Shown here piece after piece: positions 35,757-44,342 of a DNA stretch of 50,761 bases. The stretch is taken from sequence record OR896829.1; one strand, 5' to 3'. Positions within the stretch are counted from its first letter, which is position 1; each line of letters starts with the position of its first letter. A program made the position numbers and the translations under genes. The stretch comes from Escherichia phage MatMar. The notes under the pieces were generated by a model. The model worked only from the letters and a program-made list of their open reading frames with translations, had not been told where the DNA came from and searched no databases.

Positions 35757-37339
35757 TACCCCATTAACACAGGATTCACAAAAATAACACCATTAATAAC
35801 ACAAACGTAGTTTTTTTGCTCAAGCATCGGAAGCAGTTGCGATTCTATGCGCTTCATCACGCCAGCTTGCCCCAGGAAAGGTTTTACCTTGCGTGCTGCC
35901 TCATACAAAGCGCGGACATTCAATACGCCTTTATTTGCCTTACCGTGGCGGGTGATTAACTCAATCAGTTTTGACATCTCGGCATCATCACCAGCATAGC
36001 CGGACGCGTTCGCCGCGCTGATATACGTTTTGCTCAATTCATGGAACATCAGCAAGGCTTCTTGCATCGTGTCAACGTCAATCTCTCTAGACTTTTGCGG
36101 GTATCCAGCAGGATTAAACCAATTGCGTATCACATGCAGAACGGCAGCAATGCGGATCACCTGCTTATCCATTTTACCCAGCGCACCGCGTAGCATCGTA
36201 TGCGAATACTTTCCGCCGTCGGCAAGATGCGGTTCCATATCCTGGCGTGCAATGTTCAGCACGCGCATTGCAGAACGGCTAACTTTCAGAGAAACGTTAA
36301 TTTCGCTCATAATGTTATGCACCAACTGAAAGTATTGCGCTTTCAATTCACCGTCTACTGGTTCGTAAGTTGAATCACCATTCTCATCCACAAATACACG
36401 CGTACCGATTAACGGCTGTTCGCGCACCAGTAGAAAACGCTCGCTTACACCGATGCCACGAGATCCTGCATCCATGATGCCATTAATGGTTTCATCCTGG
36501 GCGATAACACTCATACATCCAAGCGCAAAAAAACTCATGTTATTGTCTGCATTAGAACGGGCGATAGAAACATGGCCGTGATCCCATGCTTTTAACACAA
36601 GTTCGCTGTTAGTTTTGCGCTCGCTATTCGCGTAAGTCAGGCCAAGCAGACTGTTAATACTGGTTGCTTCATCAGAAATAACCGCGAAGTTTCCTTGTCT
36701 GTTATTTATCTTTGCTAATCCCTCTGGTGTGGTGTCGGAGACAGGGAAAACAACATCGCAAAGTTTGCTTAGTTTTTCTTCCAGATCTTCTTTTTCTTGA
36801 TATAGAATCTCCATATCTGCGCCGGAGCGTTCGCTTTTCATCTCCTTTAGTAGTCCGGCAAGTTTTGCCTGTATCTTTTTCCGTTCCTTCTTGCGTTGCT
36901 CGTTGATGCGCTCAACTTCTGCAACCATAGGCGCAATAGCCAGACTGTTAATCGCGGATTTACCTGCCGACGGAGGCTGGCTTGTCACAACGTAAAGCGC
37001 GGTCGGCTGATCGGTTCCGTGGTAGTCAACTGTGAATCGACCAAGCATAGCGGCAGAAATACATCCGATAAAGTGCATGTAGGCCGATGATTCAGGGAAT
37101 TGAACAGATCTCGCAAGATTGCGCGCCAGCTTACCAACTACATCAACATCATTCCCAAGTGAAATGACAGGGTAGCGGTCGTTAGCGCCGTTAATATCTT
37201 CCACCTGGCCCCAATAGCTTGAAGATTGGCGGTATCCGTTGGCCTGAATGGATACACGAACAGGGGAAATACCTTGAGATTCGGCGGTTTCAATGATTTG
37301 TTTCGGTGATAACTGACTTGTTTCAAATGAAAAATTCAT
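35756..37339 (-). CDS. large early protein with P-loop-like motif (putative NTPase)
   Basis: 527 aa; deviant Walker A PPSAGKS and Walker-B-like AVISDEAT separated by charged coiled-coil-like insert. Confidence 0.4.
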   Translation of the reverse strand: MNFSFETSQLSPKQIIETAESQGISPVRVSIQANGYRQSSSYWGQVEDINGANDRYPVISLGNDVDVVGKLARNLARSVQFPESSAYMHFIGCISAAMLGRFTVDYHGTDQPTALYVVTSQPPSAGKSAINSLAIAPMVAEVERINEQRKKERKKIQAKLAGLLKEMKSERSGADMEILYQEKEDLEEKLSKLCDVVFPVSDTTPEGLAKINNRQGNFAVISDEATSINSLLGLTYANSERKTNSELVLKAWDHGHVSIARSNADNNMSFFALGCMSVIAQDETINGIMDAGSRGIGVSERFLLVREQPLIGTRVFVDENGDSTYEPVDGELKAQYFQLVHNIMSEINVSLKVSRSAMRVLNIARQDMEPHLADGGKYSHTMLRGALGKMDKQVIRIAAVLHVIRNWFNPAGYPQKSREIDVDTMQEALLMFHELSKTYISAANASGYAGDDAEMSKLIELITRHGKANKGVLNVRALYEAARKVKPFLGQAGVMKRIESQLLPMLEQKNYVCVINGVIFVNPVLMG

Positions 37340-40734: not shown

Positions 40735-41006
40735 TACTTCTTGATCTCCTCACTGATAAATTTCAGCACCCGGCGCAAGAAAACTTCGTTGTTGATAGTC
40801 GCTGGCAATTCTTCTTTCACCTCTTGCGGCAGATAGATATTGCCGTGCCAGGTCAAGCAATCGTAGTTGATACGATAAGAGCAAAGCCACTCGCAATCGT
40901 TATCTGCTTCCCAAATGCAGAGTTGCAGAACATCGCCTAAGTTCTCAACAGTCAGATCCAGACCGTGACGCTTAGCGAAATTGAAAGTGGTTTTGCTGAT
41001 GTTCAT
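40734..41006 (-). CDS. hypothetical protein (first gene of leftward early operon)
   Basis: 90 aa; AGGAGA RBS. Confidence 0.45.
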   Translation of the reverse strand: MNISKTTFNFAKRHGLDLTVENLGDVLQLCIWEADNDCEWLCSYRINYDCLTWHGNIYLPQEVKEELPATINNEVFLRRVLKFISEEIKK

Positions 41007-41041
41007 TTGCTATCTCCTGAGCGGTTTGTTTCGATGTGTGT

Positions 41042-41087
41042 AATGTACCCGATCAGAATGATTCGGTTTTAACAAAAAGTGCTATTC
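41042..41087 (-). promoter_or_regulatory. AAATAGCAC module, TACATT at N22, with no gene upstream of it
   Basis: - strand: atggaatagcactttttgttaaaac cgaatcattctgatcggg tacatt acacacatcg, then RBS and ATG 41006. Confidence 0.5.
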
Positions 41088-41681
41088 CATGCCTGGTGCA
41101 TTATTCCAGTTATTCCACGCTCAAAGAATAATCGGAATAAGTTGCTTAACTGTTAAATTGGTTAGTGTGATATGCGTTTACCAGGTTTTTCGATTGATTG
41201 CGTGTGTGATTAATCATGTGTGGCGGGGTGTATAGAAAGTAGTTGCCCTCTCGCCTCGTCCTGGTGGCGTCAGCAAACAGAAGCTGTTTATTTTGTTCGC
41301 GCGTGTTCGCGTTTCAGGGCGGCATGTTTCCGCGCTGTTTTTCAATGTATTGCGAACGCAAAAAACAAAATAAATCCCTTATAATACATTGAAAATAAAG
41401 AATATTTATTTATGTATATATTTATGTGTTATTTCTTGTTAGCGTTGTTAGTGTGGTATGTGATGGTTGCGGTGTCGCTTTGTTGGTATATATATGGATA
41501 GTTGCGCGCCTGGTGGAATGAGTATGTGTATATATACTTTTATTGCGATATTGCGCTAACAGCGCGAACAGAAAGAAAACAAGCGACAAAAACTTATTGC
41601 AAATCATGTTGTTATGTAGCGATTATCTCAAAACGTCGACAACGCGAACAGGCCGCGAACGTTATACGGACAAAATAAACA

Positions 41682-41709
41682 TTGACACGCATGAAATAGC
41701 AATTATAAT
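41682..41709 (+). promoter_or_regulatory. consensus sigma70-like promoter (TTGACA N16 TATAAT) for rightward early operon
   Basis: read directly; spacer contains AAATAGCA. Confidence 0.55.
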
Positions 41710-41740
41710 GGCCTGCAACTGACCAACAGGAGGAATGACA

Positions 41741-42203: not shown

Positions 42204-42467
42204 ATGAATAAGGCATTAATGGCGGTTTTTATGGCAACAGCATTCCTGACCGGATGTAATGGTGATGGTGCTTACGTCGATGCACAAATGGCTAACCCTG
42301 CCGATACTTACAACGTCAGAAAACTATTTACAGTCGATGGTTGCGATGTGTACAGGTTCAGCGATAGCCGATACGTGTACTTTACCAACTGCCAGGGTAG
42401 CGCAAACTGGTCAACTAACGAAGGCAAGTCGGTTAGTCACTACCAAAACACAACAAACGTGAAATAG
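42204..42467 (+). CDS. lipoprotein (second in genome)
   Basis: 87 aa from ATG 42204; signal peptide with lipobox LTGC. Confidence 0.5.
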   Translation: MNKALMAVFMATAFLTGCNGDGAYVDAQMANPADTYNVRKLFTVDGCDVYRFSDSRYVYFTNCQGSANWSTNEGKSVSHYQNTTNVK

Positions 42468-42507
42468 CACTTTTTGTTAAAACTCAAAAACGATAACCAG
42501 GCATAAT
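42462..42507 (+). promoter_or_regulatory. AAATAGCAC module, CATAAT at N22
   Basis: aaatagcactttttgttaaaac tcaaaaacgataaccagg cataat acacacatag. Confidence 0.5.
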
Positions 42508-42709
42508 ACACACATAGACGGGCGGCAAGGATTGCTGCGGGAGAGGAGCGACGCAGGGGCTTGATCGAAGTGTCAGGATTCCCAACCGTGAGGCCAGAAC
42601 TATCACACTCGCCACCAGGCAGAACGCTAGATAGGTCACTGAACTGAGGCTACCGACGAAGTGAAGCCCGTCACCAAAGATTAAACGGTTATTTATGTGA
42701 AAGGGGTTA
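42508..42709 (+). ncRNA. candidate structured non-coding RNA or long 5' leader
   Basis: about 200 bp with no ORF having start codon and RBS, GC-rich compared with flanks, begins just after a promoter-like module; local hairpins and long-range complement gacgggc / gcccgtc. Confidence 0.25.
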
Positions 42710-42892
42710 ATGATGGATAAGATCATCAAAATGAGCGAAGTCAAACCGGGAATGATGGTTAAGTTTGCTGGCAAATATCGCCTGGTGCTGGATAACTGCC
42801 GCAAAGAGAACATTCTCACCATTCGAGTTAACGGCAAGGCGCAGCTATTCGCCCCCAACGCAGATATTAATGTTGAGGTCAGAATTAAGTAA
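42710..42892 (+). CDS. hypothetical protein
   Basis: 60 aa ORF. Confidence 0.4.
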   Translation: MMDKIIKMSEVKPGMMVKFAGKYRLVLDNCRKENILTIRVNGKAQLFAPNADINVEVRIK

Positions 42893-42960
42893 TAAGCCAG
42901 GCCGCAAAATCCGGCCTATAACCAGAAATAATTTTGTTAAACCAATCAGGAGAAAGCACC

Positions 42961-44160: not shown

Positions 44161-44342
44161 TGGATGATTTTACTCGGCTTGTTCTCGGCTGGATTGTATT
44201 TCTTTTTGCGTGGCTTATCCACTGTGCGAGACATAAATTCAGACTGAGCTATGATAATTCATTCGTTATGACCTGCTTCAGTATTCCAGGATGGATCATT
44301 TTGCTTGTGGCTACTGCTGAATACATCCATAAAACATTTTAA
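44160..44342 (+). CDS. small membrane protein (two hydrophobic helices)
   Basis: 60 aa; LVLGWIVFLFAWLI and GWIILLVATA segments. Confidence 0.4.
   Translation: MDDFTRLVLGWIVFLFAWLIHCARHKFRLSYDNSFVMTCFSIPGWIILLVATAEYIHKTF

Follow-up and report, generated by a model that had tools for sequence, protein, structure and literature searches.

The DNA analysed here (referred to as the window) is the 50,761-nucleotide sequence OR896829.1 of Escherichia phage MatMar, a T1-like siphovirus (Drexlerviridae, Tempevirinae, Warwickvirus-like). From the letters alone, the first-pass annotation had singled out the segment between a CATAAT box and the ATG at position 42710 as a GC-rich non-coding gap that directly follows a promoter-like module and might encode a structured RNA. 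The CATAAT box was confirmed at 42502–42507 and the ATG at 42710, with AAAGGGG (42700–06) serving as the Shine-Dalgarno (SD) sequence before it. The compositional claim was borne out as well, with a GC content of 58.6% over 42514–42675 vs. 45.8% for the whole window and 41–44% in the 300-nt flanks, and with only 0.3% of all 162-nt windows of the genome being as GC-rich. Two ORFs starting with TTG are found inside the gap, i.e., one of 28 aa on the + strand (42561–42647) and one of 124 aa on the minus strand, extending into the gene that follows; no reading frame of the gap is conserved among relatives (see below). The RNA described in this study is followed by an A/U-rich single-stranded tail (ACCAAAGAUUAAAC...) that extends, SD included, over 42673–42709 of the + strand, and then by a 60-aa ORF (phrog_8121; 42710–42892, + strand) as the first downstream gene.

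The promoter-like module also proved real and recurrent. It comprises ATAGCACTTTTTGTTAAAAC (42464–42483), a spacer and the –10 hexamer CATAAT (42464–42507 in total, + strand), with a predicted transcription start near A42514, and is present in 12–13 co-oriented copies in the window. These copies conform to ATAGCACTTTTTGTTAAAAC-N17/18-(C/T)AT(A/T)AT, followed some 30–40 nt later by an SD and a start codon. The spacing between TTGTTA and the –10 is a non-canonical 22 nt, and a simple sigma70 scan misses the module. In SECphi27, BabyEgg and KLPN1, the same promoter directly drives the next gene.

Comparison with other phages revealed a conserved element right behind this promoter. Using a 178-nt query, blastn retrieved it from 171 of 50,697 phage records, with a single location in each genome except for two records, and a calibrated covariance model (R1) detected a single copy in each genome across three unrelated lineages of phages, scoring 150–180 bits. 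The sole R1 match in the window spans 42513–42682 (+ strand; 177.8 bits, E = 8e-55), taken as the full extent of the element, while nhmmer delimits it to 42513–42677. The first lineage is a subset of the Drexlerviridae (Warwickvirus and Hanrivervirus relatives, PHB17, KMI8, Motto), in which BEBK14, WaterSpirit and swan01 are ~99% identical to MatMar over the region of the element. The second is Dhillonvirus (~135 records, including HK578, EP23 and WFI), and the third is Jilinvirus, i.e., small myoviruses including Arya, PT1, Lumpael, IME279 and the BASEL phage Bas97. Between lineages, identity amounts to 73–85% across the ~165-nt element, and there is none outside it. All carriers are phages of Enterobacteriaceae, save for one T1-like record labelled Pseudomonas, and the element was found neither in 5,426 complete E. 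coli genomes nor in 72,556 plasmids. Additional copies from IMG/VR and metagenomes were all situated on phage-size contigs of 39–52 kb. Pattern scans of metagenomes and genomes yielded at least nine true copies, all on phage-size contigs, with a pattern so loose that most of the matches listed came from GC-rich genomes by chance. When viral contigs were scanned for distant relatives with two degenerate patterns, only chance matches were obtained outside the known lineages.

Within this element, 42517–42672 constitutes a conserved multi-junction RNA of ~156 nt, which leads an early transcript of the phage at its 5′ end, the transcription start being placed by prediction. Its topology is that of two nested three-way junctions (P0/P1/PL and PL/P2-arm/P3-arm; all strands on the + strand), which from 5′ to 3′ comprise a closing stem (P0), a hairpin with a GGA loop (P1), and a stem (PL) that is flanked by invariant purine-rich junctions and gives off the arms Pm/P2 and P3-P4-P5. 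In P0, GACGG at 42517–42521 (extendable to 42523) pairs with 42668–42672 (or 42666–42672) of the 3′ strand GCCCGTC (42666–42672). This stem is the long-range complement GACGGGC/GCCCGTC (42517–42523/42666–42672) that had been spotted in the first pass, and it forms in every lineage while covarying among them (GACGG/CCGTC, GGGCG/CGCCC, AGGCG/CGCCT, GGCAG/CTGCC, GTCGAC/GTCGAC and AGACGG/CCGTCT). The AGGA hairpin gcaAGGAttgc (42525–42535), proposed at the same time, is equally genuine and corresponds to P1 (GCGGCAA-GGA-TTGCTGC; 42522–28 with 42532–38), which covaries around its invariant GGA loop with compensated variants that include GTGGCAA/TTGCTAC and GCTATA/TATAGC. A third proposed hairpin, ctgcg N12 cgcag, is present in the MatMar sequence but was rejected on comparison, as the complementarity is absent in other lineages and the bases of its 3′ arm are taken up by Pm and the P2 junction. 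Similarly, the ACCA reported to follow the long-range stem does occur at 42673–42676 but is only partly conserved, with ACC following P0 in ~80% of the variants.

Past P1, the invariant junction GGGAGA (42539–42544, part of the GGAGAGG block at 42539–42549) leads into PL, in which GGAGC (42545–42549) pairs with the invariant columns GCU(A)CC (42649–54) while leaving one A bulged, and in which an A-U to G-C swap divides the sequences 17 vs. 15. The Pm/P2 arm (42551–42589) is nearly invariant and consists of Pm (ACG at 42551–53 with CGU at 42587–89) and P2 (42556–65 with 42572–83; loop CGAAGU, AU at 42578–79 bulged), with rare compensated changes from C-G to U-A (sequence L028), from G-C to A-U (KMI8) and from U-A to G-U (sequence L031). 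The other arm (42592–42645) stacks up P3 (42592–97 with 42639–45; swaps from A-U to G-C and from G-C to A-U), P4 (42600–04 with 42630–34; 12 distinct fully paired versions) and P5 (42608–13 with 42618–22; GCC/GGC, CCG/CGG, CCC/GGG and CTC/GAG, mostly with a GNRA loop), and holds the invariant stretches CACU (42606–09) and AGAACGC (42621–27). A last invariant junction, GACGAAG (42655–61), connects PL to the 3′ side. In total, 28–33 distinct copies were aligned, and ~70 nucleotides turned out to be invariant among stems that change fully yet stay complementary. The conserved blocks include GGAGAGG, GACGAAG, AACCGUGA and CACU/AGUG.

Two further features can be proposed from these blocks, both involving bases that never vary. 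Firstly, AGUG in the P2 loop (42569–72) is complementary to the invariant CACU (42606–09), by which the two arms could dock onto each other. Secondly, GGAGA|GG opposite CC|GAC|GA fits what is expected of a kink-turn or k-junction. Such a motif is composed of a C-stem, a 3-nt bulge and tandem sheared G.A pairs, followed by an NC stem; ..GA|GG (42543–46) and CC|GAC|GA (42653–59) match its C-stem, 3-nt bulge and G.A part, with a three-way junction in place of the regular NC stem.

The minimum free energy (MFE) of the single sequence was not better than that of dinucleotide shuffles (z-scores of +0.65 and +0.54 for the + strand and of –0.09 for the – strand). This is not significant, and is formally the outcome that the first-pass annotation had named as speaking against a structured RNA. 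However, an MFE test on a single sequence is weak, and its result is overridden by covariation. In the alignment re-fitted to the covariance model R1, on which all of the following statistics were computed, 84.4% of the pairing cells are complementary vs. 73.4 ± 0.6% in shuffles (with 0 of 500 shuffles reaching 84.4%), while only 31–43% of the cells pair when the partners are slid by 1–3 columns. Double-changed pairs number 23 vs. an expected 14.3 ± 1.4 (0 of 500 shuffles), and the covariation score is 0.272 vs. 0.112. Since the R1 alignment mis-registers P1, P3 and P4 of the Dhillonvirus copies, sub-domains were folded lineage by lineage, and each lineage on its own produced the same P3/P4/P5 and P0/P1 helices from different sequences. 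Moreover, RNAalifold recovered PL, Pm, P2 and P5 unaided. With only three to four deep lineages, part of the covariation is inherited, a problem that is lessened by the many independent versions of P4, P0 and P5. Taken with the covariance-model matches and the per-lineage folds, the pairing statistics strongly support the structured RNA that was originally proposed as a candidate. Finally, G.U cells outnumber A.C cells (110 vs. 46) and three G.U pairs, located in the Pm/P2 arm, are conserved, identifying the + strand as the folded one.

The comparison between lineages also bears on whether the locus might instead be a small protein-coding gene, as it is annotated in some GenBank records. Short hypothetical ORFs have indeed been called here, and the GC-rich sequence leaves several frames open, but these ORFs are on different strands and in different frames from one record to the next, and substitutions occur as compensating pairs. 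Furthermore, the spacing between invariant blocks is either 22 or 23 nt, and either 25 or 26 nt, depending on the lineage. Since such 1-nt shifts preclude a conserved frame on either strand, they refute a coding function, which we regard as scarcely credible; they also answer the concern raised in the first pass that homologues might reveal a conserved small ORF.

In all three lineages, P0 starts 2–6 nt after the transcription start predicted from sequence, with a conserved –10 located at a constant distance, and in the window it begins 3 nt past the predicted start. The Dhillonvirus element is preceded by TTGACA-N18-TATTAT (an 11/12 match to sigma70), which puts the predicted start at the first bases of the element. 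In Jilinvirus, –10-like hexamers (TATAGT, TAATAT, TAGTAT or TATTAT) are situated at a constant 6–7 nt from a conserved CAUAG and directly after a strong upstream terminator. On the other side, an SD and a start codon follow 13–50 nt 3′ of P0 in all lineages, and in none of them was a terminator found to separate the RNA from the ORF behind it. This coupling of a first ORF to the RNA in every lineage argues for a role in cis. The first-pass annotation had left a choice between a small RNA, a regulatory leader and a processed RNA; the evidence points to a leader, invariably co-transcribed with the ORF behind it, which may also act in trans, and a small or processed RNA are still candidates.

Another idea is that the element acts at the DNA level, being read as single-stranded DNA, for instance in an origin, a priming site or a packaging signal. 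The element does adjoin genes for a primase or helicase in Dhillonvirus, Jilinvirus and PHB17, and the divergent intergenic region in which it lies is also where a deletion by which HK578 escapes OLD has been located (bioRxiv 10.64898/2026.07.10.737580). However, the element is always co-oriented with the downstream genes and has a promoter directly upstream, carries GNRA loops and strand-specific G.U pairs, and lies far from the replication genes in Warwickvirus, making a DNA-level function highly improbable.

The genes behind the RNA differ widely. The ten first ORFs that were compared fall into eight PHROGs families lacking an assigned function plus two orphans (i.e., at least ten unrelated families), BLAST yielded no cross-lineage clusters among the first ORFs or downstream protein families, and the first ORF differs even between otherwise syntenic Jilinviruses. 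A shared partner protein among the downstream genes was rejected, as no downstream protein family is common to the lineages. The 60-aa ORF of MatMar was rejected as a partner too, as homologues that are 85% identical are widespread in Klebsiella Weberviruses (~140), where the same promoter type lies directly upstream and the RNA is absent. Two records name this Webervirus homologue "anti-RM protein stp1". The 60-aa ORF can thus be considered co-transcribed cargo rather than a conserved partner of the RNA. The position of the RNA varies as well within the Drexlerviridae, being in an early cluster of small genes in Warwickvirus and between the Dam methylase and helicase genes in PHB17 and Motto. 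The –10, RNA and tail together hence make up a mobile unit that has moved between unrelated enterobacterial phages, heading early or accessory gene arrays whatever their genes. It is an accessory unit, and the constant head of a variable gene slot.

This accessory nature is illustrated by the sister Warwickviruses SECphi27 and BabyEgg, which have an identical promoter and the same downstream 297-aa gene, lack the 60-aa ORF, and carry a 5-bp hairpin (GGGCG-N9-CGCCC) instead of the RNA, without any match to the R1 model. The RNA is thus dispensable in these phages, which retain both the promoter and the downstream gene. Since this small hairpin occupies exactly the same site, with the same promoter, tail and SD, the RNA could be nothing else than an elaborate 5′-terminal stem-loop that protects strongly expressed phage mRNAs or enhances their translation. 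The position of P0, at 2–6 nt from the 5′ end, would suit such a role, and the tail and SD resemble those of strong phage leaders. The leaders of T7 gene 10 and ompA similarly combine a stem near the 5′ end with an A/U-rich stretch and a strong SD, but are simple hairpins to which this RNA adds a conserved insert of 140 nt. As a simple hairpin already suffices in SECphi27, a stabilising role alone would leave the ~70 invariant nucleotides, the two three-way junctions and the conservation across three lineages unexplained, and we consider it improbable.

Known RNA families did not account for the element. Rfam 15 gave no matches at gathering thresholds over the whole window, and at E ≤ 10 the region 42440–42760 produced only a 9-bit chance match to a C/D snoRNA on the minus strand. 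The earlier verdict that this is not a standard tRNA was upheld, as ARAGORN predicted no tRNA or tmRNA genes in the window; given this null result and an ACC(A) tail that is not conserved in all lineages, a tRNA-like CCA end was rejected as well. The T4 species 1 and 2 RNAs, the P4 CI RNA and the P1 C4 RNA are phage RNAs of ~70–140 nt, sometimes with CCA-like tails, and are operon-embedded with their ends paired in a terminal stem, as is the case here. In contrast with these, the present RNA has no tRNA-like arms, no C4 or CI match in Rfam and an incomplete ACC tail. Host rRNA mimicry was discarded, since two 11-mers identical to 23S rRNA (E = 0.19 each) fall partly in variable positions of the element and were put down to chance. 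The same holds for a nut/rrn boxA (GCUCUUUAACAA), whose best match in the tail averages 7.1/12 and is no better than in shuffles for 17 of 18 variants, and for an RfaH ops-like GGCGGCAGGATG, which by eye is limited to the Jilinvirus copies and has the critical T changed to C. In the published literature that was searched, no description of this RNA element was found, although a bulk survey with 10,006 unnamed candidates (PMC10690425) may include it. In our view it represents a new RNA family whose general kind is known, namely structured phage leaders or non-coding RNAs.

As to its function, the RNA most likely controls expression of the early genes downstream. Our preferred, still tentative reading (with a probability of roughly 0.3) is that of a cis-acting leader which, by analogy with the put RNAs of phage HK022, would act on the transcription complex. 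HK022 putL, an RNA of ~70 nt whose first base is at +3 of the PL transcript, binds the zinc-binding domain of the RNA polymerase β′ subunit (PMC9378689), while canT of Tn916 requires >340 nt and works exclusively in cis (PMC11658703). Other mobile elements thus possess antiterminator RNAs, ~70 to >340 nt in size, that function in cis and independently of proteins (PMC9378689, PMC11658703). In such a scenario, the nascent RNA would fold on leaving RNA polymerase and act in cis on the host transcription complex, as put or canT do. This complex would then resist pausing and termination, so that any downstream cargo could be expressed, while the closing stem P0 would bury the 5′ end and thereby protect the transcript.

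The resemblance to put lies in the context. Both are leaders in enterobacterial phages that rely on the host RNA polymerase, both begin close to the transcription start of an early promoter (~3 nt after it for putL), and both are independent of the identity of the downstream genes and, as found for Dhillonvirus, head a long early operon that contains a terminator. The coexistence of ~70 invariant nucleotides with freely varying stems furthermore suits binding to a conserved host machine. Nevertheless, the RNA is not itself a put RNA: it folds ~156 nt into two three-way junctions as opposed to ~70 nt in two stem-loops arranged in a V shape, is twice the size of put without sequence or model similarity, and R1 finds no match in the HK022 genome at E ≤ 10. 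In addition, put belongs to a lambdoid phage whereas most carriers of this RNA are virulent, and antitermination has been demonstrated for put whereas for this RNA it is proposed by analogy. The canT and Bacillus EAR RNAs, which are structured RNAs belonging to mobile or accessory operons, are comparable in acting in cis and independently of proteins between a promoter and terminator-containing arrays, with a size range that brackets that of this RNA, but they function in Gram-positive hosts, are unrelated in sequence and structure, and have an experimentally shown function.

The layout of the Dhillonvirus operon is the best fit to this put-like model. In EP23, the RNA heads a leftward operon of 12.4 kb and 20 genes that encodes the replication machinery. 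A strong intrinsic terminator (GGCCCGC..GCGGGCC, then a T-run) follows gene 2 of the Dhillonvirus operon, and no sigma70-like promoter was found for ~2 kb after it, so that the distal genes need read-through. Elsewhere, Arya displays no coding-strand terminator for 4.3 kb downstream of the RNA, and the MatMar window contains a single weak terminator-like site (44174–44192), 1.5 kb downstream of the RNA. That a clear internal terminator is seen in Dhillonvirus only, and that SECphi27 and BabyEgg can dispense with the RNA, are points against the put-like model.

The fold would suit a ligand-binding aptamer equally well, given its closing stem, its junction-centred conservation, its GNRA loop and its possible kink-turn. 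The RNA might then be a riboswitch-like sensor in which a small molecule or ion gates transcription (e.g., in a Rho-dependent manner) or translation of the downstream genes. SAM-I and lysine riboswitches contain kink-turns, and the likeness to these extends to the location in the 5′ UTR, a closing helix (named P1 in those riboswitches), conserved junctions, covarying stems and a GNRA loop, and possibly to the docking of arms. In this RNA too, the 5′ UTR location and closing stem define a conserved aptamer-like domain, the invariant nucleotides cluster in junctions and loops while the stems covary, and the GNRA loop of P5, the AGUG/CACU complementarity that could dock the arms and the kink-turn-like GA motif would all be in place. 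It would also make biological sense for the state of the host to gate a replication operon or an accessory-gene slot. However, the RNA is not tied to one gene family or pathway, has no known ligand, and matches none of the known riboswitch families even at E ≤ 10. No expression platform was found either: there is no terminator, no conserved SD-sequestering pairing could be discerned by eye in the variable tail, and the distance from P0 to the SD ranges from 13 to 45 nt. As the RNA is indifferent to its cargo, and neither a terminator nor an SD-sequestering platform was found, a riboswitch dedicated to particular genes is disfavoured, and we regard a sensor as rather unlikely. In a more elaborate version, the phage would carry a sensor of host or infection signals (either a riboswitch of a new class or an RNA that senses a host protein) responding, for example, to a nucleotide pool, to an alarmone or to a second messenger of immunity. 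That such a sensor gates both the hypervariable accessory or anti-defence gene slot of Jilinvirus and Warwickvirus and the whole replication operon of Dhillonvirus is very unlikely.

Instead of acting in cis, the leader could be cut in its A/U-rich tail and yield a stable trans-acting RNA that accumulates and titrates, in the manner of a decoy or sponge, a host protein or defence sensor (e.g., CsrA, an RNase or an anti-phage system). P0 ties up both ends of the RNA, as in processed stable RNAs, and the single-stranded A/U-rich tail after P0 would offer a site for such a cut. The patchy, accessory and horizontally mobile occurrence of the RNA, in early regions beside hypervariable accessory genes (one of which is labelled "anti-RM protein stp1" in two records), is in keeping with such a role. 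Moreover, CAAGGAU in the P1 loop and the block GGAGAGG look similar to CsrA sites of the SELEX consensus. On the other hand, sponges of the CsrB/CsrC type have ~9–22 GGA motifs, mostly in hairpin loops, while there are only 2–3 in this RNA, of which just the GGA of the P1 loop and the GGAGAGGAG block are exposed, and a sponge of this particular type was rejected. The RNA is furthermore never a stand-alone gene with its own terminator, and in every lineage an SD and ORF follow at the short distance given above. A trans-acting role is therefore possible, albeit somewhat unlikely. Purely conjectural is a new self-cleaving ribozyme, whose cleavage would free the mRNA behind it and give this mRNA a defined 5′ end; the complex invariant core, the promoter-proximal position and the independence from cargo would be compatible with it, but no known ribozyme family matches and no conserved candidate cleavage site was identified, rendering this very improbable.

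Whichever of these functions applies, the RNA is large and intricate, and has kept ~70 nucleotides invariant across three unrelated phage lineages. Should the put-like model hold, the E. coli RNA polymerase would have a second RNA able to reprogram it unaided, structurally distinct from the first, and the use of this trick by virulent phages would be revealed; a sensor or decoy would instead add an RNA player to the conflict between phage and host. Since carriers plate on E. coli K-12, including BASEL members such as Bas97, these hypotheses can be tested quickly. The combination of promoter, RNA and landing site, moreover, marks a hotspot for the exchange of unrelated accessory genes. At present, ~170 phage genomes in GenBank leave the RNA unannotated or mis-annotate it as hypothetical proteins: most records have no feature in the region, a few call short hypothetical ORFs on differing strands and in differing frames, and in PHB17 the annotated dam ORF extends into the RNA element. 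Finally, a UWAAC motif recurs in about two thirds of the tails that follow the RNA.

The leader RNA (a conserved structured element of ca. 156 nt, 42517-42672 on the + strand) was absent from two sister Warwickviruses, SECphi27 (1245-1305 of its record) and BabyEgg, which carried the same promoter and the same downstream gene as the window; where the window has the 156-nt RNA, both had a 5-bp hairpin (GGGCG-N9-CGCCC), and neither contained the 60-aa ORF that is the first ORF downstream of the RNA in MatMar. These two genomes have either undergone a natural deletion or retained the pre-insertion state. The 60-aa ORF itself (phrog_8121; 42710-42892) had homologues at 81-86% identity in ca. 140 Klebsiella Weberviruses, two records of which annotate it as "anti-RM protein stp1", and more distant homologues (44% identity) in Rogue1-like phages. 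A GC-rich hairpin (CAGGCCG-CAAAATC-CGGCCT) was located directly 3′ of this ORF at 42898-42918; it lacked a T-run on the + strand, was flagged by the scan on the - strand only, and formed part of the segment missing from SECphi27. Just beyond it, AATAATTTTGTTAAACCAATCAGGAGAAAGCACCATG (42921-42960), located 5′ of the 297-aa ORF, appears closely similar to AATAATTTTGTTTAACTTTAAGAAGGAG, the leader of T7 gene 10 that enhances translation. On the upstream side of the RNA, the ORF at 42205-42467 started with MNKALMAVFMATAFLTGC, i.e., a lipoprotein signal plus lipobox, and was annotated as DUF4884 in related records; its product may be a Cor-like superinfection-exclusion lipoprotein.

The promoter-like module preceding the RNA (at 42472) was one of 12-13 in the window that followed the pattern ATAGCACTTTTTGTTAAAAC-N17/18-(C/T)AT(A/T)AT, and every copy was co-oriented with the next gene (+ strand: 28296, 30813, 31852, 42472, 45055, and 47833; - strand: 41077, 39993, 38079, 35235, 9942, and 6193). 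Allowing one mismatch, TTTTGTTAAA occurred 22 times in the window vs. 8.9 times expected. Because the spacing between TTGTTA and the -10 hexamer was non-canonical (22 nt), these modules suggest a phage-specific promoter class or an activator-dependent site. The - strand copy at 41077 was situated within ca. 700 bp of non-coding DNA (41006-41735) that separates divergent gene arrays and in which a promoter with a perfect sigma70 consensus (TTGACA-N16-TATAAT; 41682-41709) also occurs. This stretch is probably an early control or origin region.

In Dhillonvirus, the RNA was located within the divergent gp44-gp45 intergenic region (EP23, 36078-36481; HK578), and the gp44 Shine-Dalgarno sequence GGAGATATACA presumably matches the T7 gene 10 RBS. 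An OLD-escape mutant of HK578 has been described with a deletion located only as the "gp45 promoter region" (2026 preprint, bioRxiv 10.64898/2026.07.10.737580), which is the intergenic region that holds the Dhillonvirus copy of the RNA. In PHB17 (Drexlerviridae), the annotated end of the Dam methyltransferase CDS (1335-2093) overlapped the RNA by ca. 85 nt, reflecting either insertion of the module into the end of dam or a mis-annotated CDS end.

A phage database search also recovered the Dhillonvirus copy, at 92% identity, from 17 records named "Campylobacter phage" (e.g., A144) and from a single "Acinetobacter phage NJ01" record; these appear to be E. coli Dhillonvirus genomes whose host labels are doubtful. 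Finally, a loose pattern scan of genome contigs yielded many Sphingomonadales genomes among the matches listed (L159, L172, L173, L178, L189, and others), all with an identical 93-nt span. As nhmmer revealed no relation between these pattern matches and the RNA, they presumably stem from one conserved gene or RNA that fits the loose pattern by chance.
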